Shown here: piece after piece, positions 1,228-8,553 of the stretch | How the letters are laid out: every line of letters begins with the position of its first letter | Numbering within the stretch: the stretch's first letter is position 1 | IMG/VR virus record: IMGVR_UViG_2534681736_000017 | Source: a virus | Lineage: Duplodnaviria > Heunggongvirae > Uroviricota > Caudoviricetes | Length of the DNA stretch: 9,245 nucleotides | Reading direction: 5' to 3' (one strand) | Notes under the pieces: generated by a model | Database searches by the model: none | What the model was told of the DNA's origin: nothing | Seen by the model: only the letters and a program-made list of their open reading frames with translations | Program-made: the position numbers and the translations under genes

Positions 1228-1980
1228 TCATCTCGTCACTTTCCTCAATTGTGTCTCAGCATACGCTTCTTCCTGCCAGCACTTTGTAACCAGTTTATCA
1301 ATGACATCTGCATATCCTTTGTACCACTGATAATCCGTCAGGTCTGGTACCAGCTTCTGGACATGAAGCCGCGCCAGTGTGGTTGGTAAACGGCTAAACC
1401 GGTTTCCATTGCAACGCCCACAAACCTTATAAACAGGCGTGCCATGAAGCCTGGTTCTTTTTTCATCCAGGACAATACCTTTACCCTTACACCCTCTGCA
1501 CGCTGTGCTGACTTCTCCCTTACCATGACAATGCTGACACAGTTCCTTCACCCACTCTTCCTTGATAACAGATTCCCCGCTTCTGGAGTGTTTCACCACC
1601 TCGCGCAATACATCATGAAATCCAGTACCAGCACAATGCTCACAGCGAGCCTTACTTGCCGCAGACCTGGAATAATCAGCAAAGGCAAAATTCACAAGGT
1701 AAGGAATGATCTGTAGCCGGGTTTCTTCACTCAATTTGTTCAATGTCGGGTTATCCAGTGCCATCGCGTAATTGAGCAGACCTTCAATCGCAAACTGAGG
1801 ATCCTGAACACCAACTTTTGCCAGGAATAAGGCAAACCCAAGCGGTGCTTTCGACTGCACCATCCCCTGCGCAGCCATTACATCCGTAATTGTTAAACCA
1901 CCAGAGCCTGTCGCCGGTGCGTCATCGCTCAATTTTGGAGATTTTGGGGAGTAATATTTCGGTAAGGCTTCAAAGTTCAT
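1228..1980 (-). CDS. Q-like late-gene antitermination protein (250 aa) with four CxxCxGxG repeats
   Basis: Position is diagnostic: last gene of the early operon, directly upstream of the pR'-like promoter and terminator. Four Cys pairs (CEHCAGTG, CQHCHGKG, CRGCKGKG, CGRCNGNR) indicate zinc binding. Good SD (GGAG, 6-nt spacing) before the ATG at 1980. Resembles the 82-type Q family by recollection. Confidence 0.65.
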   Translation of the reverse strand: MNFEALPKYYSPKSPKLSDDAPATGSGGLTITDVMAAQGMVQSKAPLGFALFLAKVGVQDPQFAIEGLLNYAMALDNPTLNKLSEETRLQIIPYLVNFAFADYSRSAASKARCEHCAGTGFHDVLREVVKHSRSGESVIKEEWVKELCQHCHGKGEVSTACRGCKGKGIVLDEKRTRLHGTPVYKVCGRCNGNRFSRLPTTLARLHVQKLVPDLTDYQWYKGYADVIDKLVTKCWQEEAYAETQLRKVTR

Positions 1981-3819: not shown

Positions 3820-4209
3820 TCAGGCGGCTGCACCCGCCGTTTTCTCGTACTTACTGATAGTGATCTCGACCTTCCCTTCCGGGATAACCGGTCCCCACTC
3901 CACCAGCATTCTTTTCACCTGACTGTCGTCTTCCCACACACCCGCGTGGGTCAGGGCGTCAAACAGCGCCTTGTTATAGTTGTCCAGATCGCGGATCCGG
4001 TTATCCGGAGGAAACAACACGATCTCCACTGAAGCAGGTGCCGACGTTGGTTTCGGCAGACGACGTAACTGCTCAACTATTGCTGCGCACGCCGCGCTCT
4101 GGAATTTTCGCCCCGCCGCGCTTATCAGGCTCTTACCAGCAAACGCCCCTTTGTTGGGGTGTCGCCAGTACGTGTTCACGCTGGGCGGAAAAGGCAGGAT
4201 CAGCTTCAT
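3820..4209 (-). CDS. rusA: RusA-family Holliday junction resolvase (129 aa)
   Basis: LPFPPSVNTYWRH near the N-terminus plus the acidic motifs RDLDNYNKALFDALTHAGVWEDDSQV match RusA by recollection. The start ATG overlaps the upstream stop (ATGA). Confidence 0.85.
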   Translation of the reverse strand: MKLILPFPPSVNTYWRHPNKGAFAGKSLISAAGRKFQSAACAAIVEQLRRLPKPTSAPASVEIVLFPPDNRIRDLDNYNKALFDALTHAGVWEDDSQVKRMLVEWGPVIPEGKVEITISKYEKTAGAAA

Positions 4210-4532
4210 ACTTTCAGGTCCCTCTCATGTAACCAGTGGGTTGCACGCAGCCTTGCGTTTTCCTCACCGGCAAGCAGTGCGCGGATAATCCCGACCGCCT
4301 CGCTGTCGTCGTCCTTCACCGCGATATGAAGCGTTATCCCCCGGGCCACGCCACGCTTTATCGTGATGACGCCTTTTTTCTCCAGTGCGCGAAGATGCTC
4401 CACCGCTGCATTCACTGAACGGTATCCCAGCATGGTTGCCACCTCCTGATTGGTTGGCGGGAAGCCACGTTCTTTCTGATAAGAAATCAGCATATCCAGC
4501 ACCTGCTGCTGGCATTGAGTTAACGTCGTCAT
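4206..4532 (-). CDS. LexA DNA-binding-domain-only protein (108 aa), lacking the S24 peptidase domain
   Basis: Residues 3-70 (LTQCQQQVLDMLISYQKERGFPPTNQEVATMLGYRSVNAAVEHLRALEKKGVITIKRGVARGITL) align position by position with the E. coli LexA N-terminal winged-helix domain as I recall it (LTARQQEVFDLI...[36 protein letters not shown]...SRGIRL). Only about 35 residues follow, with no Ser/Lys dyad. ATGA overlaps at both ends. Confidence 0.8.
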   Translation of the reverse strand: MTTLTQCQQQVLDMLISYQKERGFPPTNQEVATMLGYRSVNAAVEHLRALEKKGVITIKRGVARGITLHIAVKDDDSEAVGIIRALLAGEENARLRATHWLHERDLKV

Positions 4533-5182
4533 GCCGCCATCTCCCTGACCAGTTTTTCTGCCTGCTGGCGAACCTGCGCCAGAAAGGCCTCACCACATGC
4601 CTCAAGTTCATAGCGCCCGATGTAGCTGATTGCCGGTCCCTTCCAGGTCTTGTCGAAAACAGCAATAGCACCAGCGAAGAAAGCGCCTGTCGGCACCTGC
4701 TTCTCATCCTTCGGGATAAACCAGGCAGGCAGTTCAAAACCAATACGCCCGCGAATAAAAGCAATATGATCTGCATCTTCCGGCCACCACACTTCGCTGG
4801 TGGCAGCTTTGATCAGGAAAACATAGCGCCCGCCTTTATCACGCATGGCACTGGCATGCTTCATGATGTAACGCATGCCGGTGATGTATTGCCCCTCATG
4901 CTGACTGGCGCGGCTGTATGGGGGATTACCAAAGGCAGCACCTTTAAGCTCCGCAAGACGTTCTGACCAGTCATGCGCCAGCGCGTTGTCTTCCGCAGTG
5001 TAATAAGCGGCACATTTGGCGTTATCACCGTCAGTGAACAGATCCAGAACAAACGGGCCAAACAGGGTGTTAATTCCCCAGAAAATGTTGTCCGGCGTGC
5101 GCCACTGATCGCCCACTTCCTTCAGTTCATGGGCTGGTTTGTTCCGCAGCTCCACCAGCGCCTGGCAATATTTATTACTCAT
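4529..5182 (-). CDS. Phage Dam-type N6-adenine DNA methyltransferase (217 aa from ATG at 5182)
   Basis: NPPY catalytic motif (FGNPPYS) is encoded at about 4916-4927. The ORF track extends to a GTG at 5215, but the ATG at 5182 has a GGGGG SD and overlaps the upstream stop as TAATG, so 5182 is preferred. Target specificity is unknown. Confidence 0.8.
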   Translation of the reverse strand: MSNKYCQALVELRNKPAHELKEVGDQWRTPDNIFWGINTLFGPFVLDLFTDGDNAKCAAYYTAEDNALAHDWSERLAELKGAAFGNPPYSRASQHEGQYITGMRYIMKHASAMRDKGGRYVFLIKAATSEVWWPEDADHIAFIRGRIGFELPAWFIPKDEKQVPTGAFFAGAIAVFDKTWKGPAISYIGRYELEACGEAFLAQVRQQAEKLVREMAA

Positions 5183-5670
5183 TAAGCCCCCACGTAATTC
5201 CCTGACAGATACCACTCTTCACCCGATACAGCGCGCTTGCTGCTTTTCCGTAAGCACCGCTCACAACGCGCCAGAAAATTGTTTCGTTCTGGCTGGGAGT
5301 GGCTTTCACGGAATGCCGCCATCCACACCGTTGCAGCACGACGGTATAAGCCCCTGGACTCCAGTTCTTCAGCCTGGCGGGTCAGGCACAAAATCACCCG
5401 GGGATCGTTAGTGCCGACATAGAAATTGCGCACAGGTCTGGTTTCACGAACTGGTTGTGGTTCCGGCTCCTGCGCTCTCTCAGTCAGGCGCGGGAAATGT
5501 CTGCGTGTATCCCCTTCACAACGGTGAGCCACACGCCCACTCTGACGTAACTTGCTTGCAGACTGCAGAACGCGCTGCCGTGAGTAACCTGCAAAAGCAT
5601 CCGCAATGTCTCCGGAAGTACAGCCCGGATGGGCTTCAATGAATTTCTGAACGTCATTCAAAAGACTCAT
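5182..5670 (-). CDS. PerC/ANR-family-like transcriptional regulator with an N-terminal extension (162 aa from ATG at 5670)
   Basis: LTRQAEELESRGLYRRAATVWMAAF matches the PerC-type signature (AE-LE--G--RRAA--W) by recollection. ATG at 5670 is preceded by GGGGGTGA; the ORF track starts at a GTG at 5676. Confidence 0.6.
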   Translation of the reverse strand: MSLLNDVQKFIEAHPGCTSGDIADAFAGYSRQRVLQSASKLRQSGRVAHRCEGDTRRHFPRLTERAQEPEPQPVRETRPVRNFYVGTNDPRVILCLTRQAEELESRGLYRRAATVWMAAFRESHSQPERNNFLARCERCLRKSSKRAVSGEEWYLSGNYVGA

Positions 5671-5672
5671 GC

Positions 5673-6614
5673 TCACCCCCTGAATCCTGCCGGGATCTGG
5701 CTGTAGTCCACGTTGTCGTAACTGGCTTTGAAGTACGGGTCCTCGCGTTTTTCGGTGTACGTGCTGACGGACGGCGATAAGCGCAGGGAAAGCTCATCCC
5801 ATTTTTCCCGCAGCTTCGACGGGCTGAGCACGTTACGGCACCAGAACGGATCGCGACTGACGCGGCTGTACATCTCGCAGATTTGTTTATGAGTACGACC
5901 ATCCTGCACACACATCAGGCGAATTTCGTTTGCCCAGGCTGTCCAGTTCGGTTCTTTGGGACGAACCACCTCGCCGTCACATTCGGCGGCATGCTCGTAC
6001 AGGGCGATGATTTTTTTCCAGAGCCACTGTGCACAGGTCAAATCATCCTGCGTCCCCCACTGGCGCTTTTTAGGGCTGAATACAACCGCATCAGGATGGC
6101 GAGTTAAAAAATCCTGTTCATCCGTCTGCGTGTCCGGTTGCGAAGCGTCCGGACGAGAAGGTTTTTTATCTGACGGATCATGTTTTGATTTTACTGACGG
6201 ATCCCCGCCAGATTCTGACGGGTGAAAACCCGCTTTTTTGCCAGATTTCGACGCATCAAATTTTGACGGGTCAGATTTTGATGCGTCAGATTTTGACGGG
6301 TCAGAATCTGACAGTTGAGAAAATGCCGCTGCCTGAAGCTTCGCAACGTTAAGCTGATAAACATTCGACGCATTGCGGTTACCCTGGCGACGCGCCTTAC
6401 GCGTTAACCAGCCTTCTGCTTCCAGCCGTGCGATAGCCGTTCTGACGGTGCTCATCCCCGCGCCAATCTGGCGGGCAATGGTTTCAATTGATGGCCAGCA
6501 CACACCTTCGTCATTACTGAAATCAGCCAGGCGGGCCATAATTGCCACGCTGGATAACTTCATGCCTGACGCAGCGCAACCATCCCATACATAGCCGGTT
6601 AATTTAGTGCTCAT
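5673..6614 (-). CDS. Replication initiator (O-like): N-terminal wHTH, repeat-encoded acidic/Ser-rich linker, C-terminal domain; 313 aa
   Basis: N-terminus (CWPSIETIARQIGAGMSTVRTAIARLEAEGWLTRK) is a winged-HTH of the kind seen in phage replication initiators. The central linker DPSKSDASKSDPSKFDASKS is encoded by tandem DNA iterons. SD GAGG with 6-nt spacing precedes the ATG at 6614. Confidence 0.7.
   Translation of the reverse strand: MSTKLTGYVWDGCAASGMKLSSVAIMARLADFSNDEGVCWPSIETIARQIGAGMSTVRTAIARLEAEGWLTRKARRQGNRNASNVYQLNVAKLQAAAFSQLSDSDPSKSDASKSDPSKFDASKSGKKAGFHPSESGGDPSVKSKHDPSDKKPSRPDASQPDTQTDEQDFLTRHPDAVVFSPKKRQWGTQDDLTCAQWLWKKIIALYEHAAECDGEVVRPKEPNWTAWANEIRLMCVQDGRTHKQICEMYSRVSRDPFWCRNVLSPSKLREKWDELSLRLSPSVSTYTEKREDPYFKASYDNVDYSQIPAGFRG
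6164..6313. repeat. Iteron array (about eight copies of roughly GATTYTGACGGRTCA), putative phage replication origin inside the initiator gene
   Basis: Copies begin near 6164, 6187, 6209, 6242, 6258, 6272, 6287 and 6303. The last four are contiguous at 15-bp period, for example AGATTTTGATGCGTCA, AGATTTTGACGGGTCA, GAATCTGACAG. This is analogous to the lambda ori iterons within gene O. Confidence 0.65.
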
Positions 6615-6623
6615 GACCGACCT

Positions 6624-6962
6624 CTATTTCCCTGAATTTACGACGAAACTGTTCGAGCGGGCTGAAGCACTCATGCTCATAGCCTTCGCGGAGGTAGATA
6701 ACCCGTTGTGTTTCCGGTTCCCAACGAATGACTCTGACGGGCACTCCGTAGTGATCTTTGAACCAGCGGTTAACTTGTCGCAAAGGACTGTCTCCTTTTG
6801 CCTGTTGAAATCACCCACAGCCCACTCTGCAAAGCTGTGGGTTACAATTTCCCTGTCACCTGGTACATTCACTGCATAGCAATACTCCACCTTCGCTTTT
6901 CCACCCGGTACAGGAAGTGCAATCAGTTGCGAGCGACGGTAGTGTGTTGTTAAACTGTTCAT
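6624..6962 (-). CDS. Hypothetical protein (112 aa) between the CII-like and replication genes
   Basis: Start ATG overlaps the CII-like stop (ATGA), and its stop sits immediately before the SD of the replication gene, which fits the coupled operon. No family recognised and the composition is unconvincing. A competing plus-strand ORF (6607-6879) exists. Confidence 0.4.
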
Positions 6963-7510
6963 GCGTTAGTTTCTCCACAGTCACGACACGCCACGGCGCC
7001 CGGAGCTGCACACTCGCGGGCGTCATTACTTTCTGAAATGCAAAAAATTTTGTAGACCAGTGCTGCATGCTCCTGCAGCTTCGAAATTGAGAGGTACAGC
7101 TCGTCGTTAATTGCTGTCTTCTCATGCGGTTCCACTACACCGTCTTCAATTGCTGAACGAATCTGTTTTGAATAACTGCCGATCTGTTCAATGACCTCCA
7201 GCAGGCGTTGGTTGATATCGGCGTTGTCCACATCCTCGACATCAGGAAGAGACACAAAGACGCCATTTGCAGACTGCGCCACAGCGTCAGCAATGAAGTG
7301 AGTTCCACCAGCACGTTGCAAAATCATTGCCCATCCCAGCGGGAAAATCTGATCGCCATCGGCACGAAGGCGGTTAAATAATGCGTTCTCTGTTACATCC
7401 AGCCAGTCAGCAGCTTCAGCGTACCCCCCCGGCAACGCTGCGATAGTTTTTCTGACAGCTTTCACGTACCACTCAGGCTGTTTTTCTACTTTCCAGTGAT
7501 GCTTACCCAC
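6959..7510 (-). CDS. CII-like phage regulatory protein (186-type CII family-like), 183 aa, GTG start
   Basis: [37 protein letters not shown] resembles the phage 186 CII segment (NKLNPEQPHQFTPPELWLL...LVDGFLAQ) by recollection. GTG at 7510 is preceded by AGGAGGT with 6-nt spacing and overlaps the Cro-like gene end. Confidence 0.55.
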
Positions 7511-7763
7511 GGTTCACCTCCTGTTCCTGTGGTTTAAACCCATTCTGGTTTTGGCTAGATTGAAAACGTGCCGGATAAAGAATCTGCATTTCGCTGACTT
7601 CACCCTTAAAAAAATTGGCTAAACGTTCTGCAAGCTCGATAGATGGAATCTGCTCCAGCCTCTCAATACGACTCAACGTCGCTGGATTGACTTGAACACC
7701 CGCAGCAACATGCTGCAAAGTGAAACCATGCGCCTTACGCACATTTCGTAATGGTGATTGCAT
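7503..7763 (-). CDS. Cro-like HTH (XRE-type) DNA-binding protein, 86 aa
   Basis: HTH segment FTLQHVAAGVQVNPATLSRIE. SD GGAGG lies 6 nt upstream of the ATG. It is the first gene of the rightward operon, divergent from the cI-like repressor. Confidence 0.75.
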   Translation of the reverse strand: MQSPLRNVRKAHGFTLQHVAAGVQVNPATLSRIERLEQIPSIELAERLANFFKGEVSEMQILYPARFQSSQNQNGFKPQEQEVNRG

Positions 7764-7860: not shown

Positions 7861-8553
7861 ATGAACATAGGAAACCGAGTCAGACAACTTCGCCAAGCGA
7901 AGAACATGAAAATCGCCGATCTCGCTGAAGCGATAGGAGTAGATGCGGCGAACATCTCGCGCTTAGAAACGGGTAAGCAAAAACAATTTACCGAACAAAC
8001 ACTGAGTAATATTGCCAAGAGCTTAGGTGTTGATATTGCTGATCTCTTTACCTCTGCCCACAAAAGTAATACTGTATATAAAAACAGTAATAATGAGGAT
8101 GTTGCGCAGGTGAAGGATGTGTTCCGTATTGAAATGCTGGATATCAGTGCCAGTGCGGGAAATGGCCTTATCCAGGGCGGTGATGTCATTGATGTGATTC
8201 ATGCCATCGAATACAGAACTGATAATGCTGTATCAATGTTCGGCGGACGACCAGCCAATCACATCAAAGTTATCAACGTTCGTGGGGACAGTATGTGTCC
8301 AACCATTGAGCCAGGAGATCTCATCTTCGTTGATGTCAGCATCAATCAGTTTGATGGTGATGGTATATATGTCTTTGGTTTTGATGACAAAATATACGTT
8401 AAAAGACTTCAAATGATTCCTGACAAACTGCTGGTGATTTCTGATAACCAGATTTACCGTGAATGGGGAATTACTAGCGAAAACGAACACCGATTCATGG
8501 TCTTTGGAAAGGTCTTAATCAGTCAGTCGCAAACCCTTAAGAGACATAATTAA
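7861..8553 (+). CDS. cI-like phage repressor (HTH_XRE N-terminal domain plus S24 LexA-like autopeptidase domain), 230 aa
   Basis: N-terminal HTH (MKIADLAEAIGVDAANISRLETGKQ). Candidate Ala-Gly cleavage site A99-G100 (SASAGNG), Ser nucleophile in RGDSMCP (S144) and Lys in YVKRL (K181). No SD before the ATG, so possibly leaderless like lambda cI. Confidence 0.9.
   Translation: MNIGNRVRQLRQAKNMKIADLAEAIGVDAANISRLETGKQKQFTEQTLSNIAKSLGVDIADLFTSAHKSNTVYKNSNNEDVAQVKDVFRIEMLDISASAGNGLIQGGDVIDVIHAIEYRTDNAVSMFGGRPANHIKVINVRGDSMCPTIEPGDLIFVDVSINQFDGDGIYVFGFDDKIYVKRLQMIPDKLLVISDNQIYREWGITSENEHRFMVFGKVLISQSQTLKRHN
8070..8089. promoter_or_regulatory. Near-consensus LexA (SOS) box inside the cI-like coding sequence
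   Basis: TACTGTATATAAAAACAGTA matches the E. coli LexA box consensus TACTGTATATATATACAGTA at 18 of 20 positions, with perfect CTGT-N8-ACAG. It is the only CTGT-N8-ACAG in the window. Function is unproven. Confidence 0.45.

Follow-up and report, generated by a model that had tools for sequence, protein, structure and literature searches.

A LexA-type DNA-binding domain with its own helical hairpin, encoded beside RusA in the early operon of lambdoid prophages

The window analysed here, the whole 9,245-nucleotide stretch of IMG/VR record IMGVR_UViG_2534681736_000017 (Caudoviricetes), covers a lambdoid prophage from the immunity region to Q and is 95-98% identical to the Shigella phages SfII and SfV, coliphage mEp460 and several Stx2 phages. 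Between its genes for a Dam methyltransferase and the resolvase RusA lies a gene, hereafter the LexA-DBD gene, whose 108-residue product begins as a LexA DNA-binding domain (DBD) and ends in a tail of its own. What might a phage do with the head of the host SOS repressor when the protease that answers to RecA is gone? The gene's existence is not new, since database records throughout already label it LexA family or LexA DBD. The product was found to be a two-module protein under purifying selection, and it may be a binder of LexA-type operators. The gene and its parts are as follows.

4206..4532, minus strand: LexA-DBD gene, 108 residues, stop codon included, ATG start and TGA stop (open reading frame (ORF) list, PF01726, PHROG 362; ratio of nonsynonymous to synonymous polymorphism, pN/pS, 0.11)
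4323..4532, minus strand: LexA-type winged helix-turn-helix, codons 1-70 (AlphaFold model; Foldseek to 3jso; pN/pS 0.03)
4377..4418, minus strand: recognition helix SVNAAVEHLRALEK, codons 39-52 (phmmer alignment to 1lea/1jhh)
4224..4313, minus strand: two-helix hairpin, codons 74-103 (AlphaFold predicted local distance difference test, pLDDT, about 90; kept in relatives; pN/pS 0.25)

A LexA head, a missing protease and a conserved tail

Residues 1-65 cover the whole of the Pfam LexA_DNA_bind model (PF01726, 1-65/65; E=2.9e-19, 69 bits against a cut-off of 23.7). The best phmmer matches in the PDB were all LexA, led by the N-terminal domain of E. coli LexA (1lea; E=6e-16, residues 2-69), with 1jhh, 3jso and 8trg close behind. 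The AlphaFold model (21-sequence input alignment, mean pLDDT 84.7, predicted template modelling score (pTM) 0.58) contains helices at residues 6-22, 28-35 and 40-52 and wing strands at 56-58 and 66-68. Foldseek superposed it on DNA-bound E. coli LexA (3jso) with a root-mean-square deviation (rmsd) of 0.9 Å over 68 residues at 50% identity. The original prediction, made from the letters alone, had placed a LexA winged helix at the N-terminus, read a recognition helix within it and proposed a superposition on the LexA N-terminal domain. The Pfam and PDB matches confirm the first of these in every particular, the recognition helix is indeed present as the string RSVNAAVEHL, and the superposition agrees.

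LexA residues listed as DNA contacts are S39, N41, A42, E44 and E45 (PMC3091678). Four out of five are kept in the phage protein (S39, N41, A42 and E45), as are the wing residues R64-G65-I66 of LexA. The recognition helix of the window's clade differs from that of LexA at two positions, where P40 and E44 have both become V. In the alignment of relatives S39, N41, G65 and I66 are invariant across the family and R64 is nearly so, and the pattern S39-N41-(A/G)42-(E/D)45 is kept in seven of the ten tail-bearing lineages, at overall identities down to about 40%.

The protease is a different matter. No Pfam match to Peptidase_S24 (PF00717) was found in the 108-residue protein, while cI in the same window matches at 6e-19. 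The NCBIfam lexA equivalog (TIGR00498) gave 69.3 bits against a cut-off of 110.95, with profile positions 1-91 of 203 matched. As the protein ends at residue 108, with the rusA start overlapping, and S24 finds no match, a cleavage domain is neither present nor concealed by a frameshift. The absence of an S24 Ser/Lys module that had been predicted is therefore borne out, the equivalog being matched over its N-terminal part alone. The pair A88-G89, which aligns with A84-G85 of LexA, was considered as a (trans-)cleavable LexA-like site and rejected, as it is not conserved: relatives have AN, ER, TR, DD, CS or DT instead, and the pair sits at a predicted helix end. With no S24 domain and no conserved Ala-Gly site, activated RecA cannot inactivate the phage protein. 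Because the S24 domain, the Ala-Gly site and a score above the equivalog cut-off are all lacking, the phage protein falls outside the LexA equivalog family. It belongs to PHROG 362, which it matches at full length (1-108 against 1-106/106, E=2e-58); the nin-region place directly 5′ of rusA that marks PHROG 362 recurs in the window, in phage records and in distant relatives.

Other protease-less proteins with a LexA head were observed. Four (P0129, P0154, P0159 and P0166) have two tandem DBDs in a chain of 140-165 residues and are possible single-chain dimers, and two (P0141 and P0143) are bare DBDs of 70-82 residues. BFVD holds many viral 'LexA DNA-binding domain' proteins of 65-150 residues, in unrelated phages.

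The roughly 35 residues that follow the DBD, which the original prediction had treated as a mere end, turned out instead to be a conserved two-helix hairpin. Its helices (74-88 and 93-102) are modelled with a pLDDT of about 90, the linker at 71-75 falls below 50, and the model places the hairpin against the DBD without confidence (pTM 0.58). An exhaustive phmmer search of 1.84 billion representatives returned 4538 proteins at E<=1e-3. Several of these are proteins of 105-135 residues, 38-50% identical and aligned through the tail, in which A97 and L101 never vary and both tail helices keep their hydrophobic stripes. The tail matched no Pfam family, the best being NIL at E=0.04, below threshold. 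The hairpin is probably an oligomerisation or partner-binding module. A 28-residue hairpin whose hydrophobic stripes are exposed would normally call for a partner, and we infer self-association as the simplest candidate.

Operon, selection and distribution

The LexA-DBD gene lies in the minus-strand early operon, in which all genes are co-oriented in the order cro-like, cII, O-like, PerC-like, Dam, LexA-DBD, RusA, KilA-N, DUF968/HNH and Q. The features that bear on its expression are listed here.

4541..4546, minus strand: Shine-Dalgarno sequence AGGGAG, 8 nt 5′ of the LexA-DBD ATG, within the end of dam (read from the sequence)
4529..5182, minus strand: phage Dam methyltransferase, the coupled upstream gene (Pfam Dam 5e-45; likely start ATG 5182)
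3820..4209, minus strand: RusA Holliday-junction resolvase, the coupled downstream gene (Pfam RusA 6e-15)
5182-5676, minus strand: PerC-like protein
5673-6614, minus strand: O-like replication protein
6959-7510, minus strand: cII
7503-7763, minus strand: cro-like gene
1228-1980, minus strand: Q
7861-8553, plus strand: cI repressor, helix-turn-helix plus S24

The start codon of the LexA-DBD gene (4532-4530) shares an ATGA with the Dam stop codon (4531-4529), and its stop codon (4208-4206) shares another with the rusA start (4209-4207). No strong terminator-like site was found on the minus strand between the cro end of the operon and the LexA-DBD gene. Both the ATGA overlaps and the early lytic operon that had been proposed for this gene can be read from the sequence, the gene being co-oriented and translationally coupled with PerC-like, Dam, RusA and Q. 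The Dam ORF as called by the program starts at GTG 5215; ATG 5182 is favoured by the family profile and by the mEp460 annotation (654 nt), and it overlaps the PerC-like stop by one base (TGATG). With this start, each stop codon overlaps the next start codon without a break from PerC-like through Dam and LexA-DBD to RusA. PADLOC matched MTase_II to residues 12-228 of the longer Dam ORF and gave no meaningful match that would make the LexA-DBD gene part of a defence system.

Selection was estimated from 48 distinct alleles out of 66 full-length copies in the fetched loci. The pN/pS was 0.11 for the whole gene, 0.03 for codons 1-70 and 0.25 for codons 71-108, with pS at about 0.09, and the claim that this is no pseudogene is upheld by these values. 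The gene was found in 2233/5426 complete E. coli genomes (about 41%), at full length in 2223/5426, with up to four copies per genome that are almost always chromosomal, and in 61 phage records. Proteins that are 95-99% identical occur in SfV (orf42), SfII, mEp460, cdtI and Stx2 phages, and close relatives in Citrobacter, Salmonella and Hafnia. The usual annotations are 'LexA family transcriptional regulator', 'LexA DNA binding domain protein' and 'repressor, lexA family'. Four records (AB285204.1, cdtI orf48; KF030445.1; LR595868.1; LR595862.1) carry the names 'RecA-mediated autopeptidases' or 'SOS-response repressor and protease LexA', which are wrong because the peptidase domain is absent. 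A near-identical protein (P0031) is named 'Rrf2 family transcriptional regulator'.

SOS boxes in cI and at other loci

A LexA-type head raises the question of its operators, and one candidate lies within the window.

8070..8089: putative LexA operator TACTGTATATAAAAACAGTA, in the cI linker, codons 70-77 (CTGT-N8-ACAG search; position weight matrix, PWM)

This is the sole perfect CTGT-N8-ACAG in the window, and it has the same sequence as the umuD(C) and sbmC operators of E. coli (PMC3009722 Table 4). On a PWM built from the 14 boxes of that table it scored 28.7, the maximum among known sites; shuffled windows gave 0.1 matches at a score >=12 per 9.2 kb. A CTGT-N8-ACAG occurs at the same cI codon position in mEp460, Stx2a_1447 and 1720a-02 (93% nucleotide identity), and a box is also found there in the metagenomic locus L004 (71% protein identity), in Salmonella F1055 and in Klebsiella ST147-VIM1phi7.2. 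Its coordinates in other loci are given below.

L001/L003, 6210-6229: cI box
L002, 6210-6229: cI box
L004, 836-855: cI box
L093, 1174-1193: cI box
L095, 2800-2819: cI box

The cI linker around the box is hypervariable and contains indels. Solely T71, V72 and S76 are invariant there, and these are encoded by ACTGTA…ACAGT, which argues for selection on the DNA site. The LexA-DBD gene was present in 52 of the 59 evaluable IMG/VR loci with the window's cI and absent from seven, in three of which Dam abuts RusA. However, the pairing of gene and cI box that was originally proposed did not survive a survey of co-occurrence. Salmonella F1055 and Klebsiella ST147-VIM1phi7.2 have the box without the gene; SfV, cdtI, 2H10, Stx2c and Lys8385Vzw have the gene without the box, as do most gene-bearing phages. 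A specific link between the two was rejected on these grounds, and the box is therefore a feature of the cI family, one that host LexA presumably binds as primary ligand. The LexA-DBD protein could bind the cI box as well, with nothing linking the two.

A scan for consensus promoters around the cI box gave no match under the scan criteria. Upstream of the box, TTTACC-17 bp-TACTGT was observed, a layout like that of the umuDC promoter (TTGACA-17-TACTGT). It is possible that the box acts as a LexA roadblock on cI transcription, which would make an incoherent feed-forward on induction, or that it is an SOS-controlled internal promoter giving a free S24 C-terminal fragment.

A different arrangement was found in two of the distant relatives, loci L011 (4500-5000) and L012 (4450-5000). 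Here a terminator is followed by a promoter-like region, read by eye, that is overlapped by an SOS box (TACTGTTTATATATACAGTG and ACCTGTACATTCATACAGTA, with PWM scores of 27.3 and 18.6). After the box come a leader of about 130-140 nt, a homologous ORF of 75/82 residues for which no family match was found, the LexA-DBD gene, RusA, DUF968 and Q. From this order the nin/Q operon of L011 and L012 looks directly LexA-controlled, and the layout is compatible with a self-limiting circuit if the LexA-DBD protein binds the same box.

A further SOS-like box, TACTGTAAAAATAAACAGTG (PWM 22.1), was observed in SfV (L097, 9584-9603), cdtI (L098, 10649-10668) and an Stx2c phage (L100, 10274-10293). It lies just within the 5′ end of a late-region DNA methyltransferase gene 3′ of Q (coding sequence 9576-10628 in SfV and 10641-11693 in cdtI); the Stx2c record has no annotation at this position. 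A similar box occurs in L011 at 7739-7758, just 5′ of an N6_N4 methyltransferase gene.

Proposed role, alternatives and known relatives

As four out of five DNA contacts of LexA are kept, a RecA-insensitive SOS-box binder is the best, if provisional, reading of this protein. It would be a LexA-type operator binder made early in lytic growth, to which the hairpin would supply self-association, and we hold this to be almost, if not quite, an evenly balanced proposition. A protein of two modules, winged helix-turn-helix and hairpin, would be expressed from the rightward early operon with translational coupling to Dam and RusA. Because its recognition helix and wing closely resemble those of enterobacterial LexA, the protein would most likely target LexA operators, reading CTGT-containing SOS boxes in the host chromosome as well as those of co-resident mobile elements and of the phage itself. 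On the operator, LexA DBDs touch and form a dimer interface (PMC3159453); the hairpin would most likely replace the lost LexA dimerisation domain or stabilise this DBD-DBD contact on DNA. In lytic growth, when host LexA is cleaved, the net effect would be to re-repress or retune LexA-controlled promoters in a RecA-insensitive way, with repression rather than activation as the predicted sign and some presumable benefit to the phage. A fuller version of this proposal, in which the protein is a RecA-proof LexA mimic that dimerises through its hairpin and re-silences the SOS regulon in lytic growth, with a divergent clade running an SOS-box pulse circuit and the whole family acting as a widespread anti-SOS factor, is more tentative. 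If it is true, the SOS targets silenced would be host repair and mutagenesis genes, SOS-induced toxins, colicins and LexA-controlled rival prophages.

Several observations weigh against an SOS-box binder. Glu45 is lost in three of the ten tail-bearing lineages (P0086, P0202 and P0168), where it is replaced by G, I or L, and position 44, a Glu contact in LexA, is never acidic across the family. Specificity is therefore not uniformly LexA-like: on its residues the window's clade looks LexA-like in its DNA reading, and the family as a whole does not uniformly do so. One of the three proteins without Glu45, P0202, is that of L011, and the box at that locus may accordingly serve host LexA alone. 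Strong SOS boxes were found in three of four same-backbone controls without the LexA-DBD gene, so no comparative signal ties the gene to SOS boxes. Moreover, three IMG/VR loci with identical cI and Dam (L030, L039 and L071) have no LexA-DBD gene, their RusA being 99-100% identical and their Dam abutting RusA, from which it follows that the gene is dispensable. The sole characterised truncated LexA homologue of a phage, gp6 of GIL01, has its own site and activates (PMC6182141). Finally, literature searches, with few subscription journals within reach, found no functional study of the LexA-DBD protein.

Some of the same observations would suit a phage-specific transcription factor, in which the LexA head has been retargeted to one or a few phage operators, with no meaningful effect on host SOS. 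Such a factor could activate or repress, for example in the timing of Q or of late genes, or at a moron. It has a precedent in gp6, which binds GaCACAnnTGTGaC and activates P3 (PMC6182141). The missing Glu44 and the G, I or L at position 45 of three lineages would be signs of drifting specificity, and the many small viral LexA DBD proteins in unrelated phages fit as well. However, the recognition helix of the window's clade has only the two substitutions against LexA with its key contacts kept, and the protein has no sequence similarity to gp6. Palindromes of other spacing (CTGT-Nx-ACAG and ACAG-Nx-CTGT, x=0-20) are present in the window as single occurrences, with no pattern or enrichment. 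An optional cassette that is absent from otherwise identical phages is also unlike a core timing regulator. We consider this alternative unlikely, and it is the one that survives best.

The position of the gene suggests another alternative, an accessory to recombination, in which the hairpin would bind RusA or another recombination protein, the winged helix would tether or regulate the resolvase, and the likeness to LexA would be ancestry. RusA is the downstream neighbour of the LexA-DBD gene in 6/6 independent distant relatives examined, with a 4-bp overlap in L004, L005 and L009, a gap of 2 nt in L011 and one small gene between them in L008 and L012. The upstream neighbour varies among Dam, a Dcm-like methylase, a replication protein and small ORFs, as this alternative would have it. 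The RusA of L011 and L012 is of a very different subfamily, alignable to that of the window over 35-60 residues, and the LexA-DBD proteins of these two loci are nevertheless 42-44% identical over about 100 residues. A hairpin left undocked on the DBD is also what would be expected if it needed a partner. However, an obligate RusA partnership was set aside, weakened by the phages with identical RusA and no LexA-DBD gene (L030, L039 and L071). On the same backbone, with the same RusA subfamily, the methylase stands directly before RusA without the gene in F1055, vB_EcoS-716R3, ST147-VIM1phi7.2 and YeP1, and ordinary lambdoid RusA phages, like most RusA phages, are without it. Moreover, the strongest constraint falls on the DNA-reading surface and not on the tail, and adjacency can be explained by a fixed insertion slot in a collinear operon. 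Our reading is that the LexA-DBD gene is an accessory cassette with such a slot and no obligate RusA partner, which makes a recombination accessory improbable.

The sign of the effect could also be the reverse, as nothing in the sequence fixes it. Since tight LexA binding needs two joined DBDs that touch on DNA (PMC3159453), a foreign DBD could interfere by occupying half-sites, forming mixed LexA complexes or titrating a partner, and so weaken repression and increase SOS or prophage induction. Host LexA is, however, already cleaved at induction, leaving little to antagonise, and the effect of the free LexA N-terminal domain is repression, not derepression (PMC10584840); such an antagonist is very improbable. 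A functionless, decaying remnant of a captured lexA would fit the loss of two thirds of LexA, and also the match to the lexA model, which extends across the linker to about position 91 and is compatible with a truncated lexA as ancestor. This reading is effectively refuted by the gene's pN/pS across the 48 alleles (0.11, and 0.03 in the DBD), by a length and tail kept at 38-50% identity in several genera, by an intact Shine-Dalgarno sequence and coupled start and stop, and by full-length copies in 2223/5426 complete E. coli genomes.

The SOS response governs mutagenesis, persistence, colicin release and prophage induction, including that of Shiga-toxin phages, and the LexA-DBD gene is carried in prophages of roughly two in five sequenced E. 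coli strains. If the SOS-box reading is true, the gene would be an unrecognised modifier of SOS dynamics, of competition among co-resident prophages and of antibiotic-triggered toxin production. Even as a phage-specific regulator, it would be a second, independent phage capture and retooling of the LexA head after GIL01 gp6.

Among the closest known systems is E. coli LexA (1lea, 3jso), with the same winged helix-turn-helix, about 50% identity over residues 2-69 and the same wing R64-G65-I66. The phage protein differs in having neither the Ser119/Lys156 S24 protease and dimerisation domain nor the conserved Ala-Gly site, in its E44V and P40V substitutions, in its own two-helix hairpin and in its place in a phage early lytic operon. 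When LexA is cleaved, the signal for ClpXP degradation of its N-terminal fragment is the newly exposed C-terminus. That fragment (residues 1-84) is likewise a free DBD with no RecA response; it keeps some SOS-box binding and repression, and ClpXP must remove it for SOS induction (PMC10584840). Whereas the fragment is cleared by ClpXP, the phage protein ends differently, in …RDLKV, and carries an additional folded hairpin, and on this basis may be stable and better at self-association. The lexA(Ind-) mutants (for example LexA G94E, used in S. aureus) are alike in concept, being RecA-proof operator binders that block SOS induction (PMC10584840), but they are full-length dimeric point mutants whereas the phage protein is natural and truncated. 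BlaI/MecI, MarR/MepR and MntR also have a winged helix followed by C-terminal helices and gave weak full-length Foldseek matches (template modelling score about 0.5); with no sequence relationship and a full-length rmsd of about 10 Å, the likeness is one of architecture alone.

A counterpart in kind is gp6 of the Bacillus tectivirus GIL01, a truncated homologue of LexA whose binding site is GaCACAnnTGTGaC and which activates the late promoter P3 (PMC6182141). Like the LexA-DBD protein it is phage-encoded, essentially a DBD, early and uncleavable, and it acts with promoters controlled by host LexA (PMC6182141). Unlike it, gp6 is 66 residues long, has no hairpin, has a site of its own and is a late-promoter activator in a Gram-positive host; BLASTP of the 108-residue protein against GIL01 ORF6 (gp6) gave no alignment at E<=100. 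What sets the phage protein of the window apart from gp6 is its host-like recognition helix, its private hairpin and the fact that it is very widespread in E. coli.

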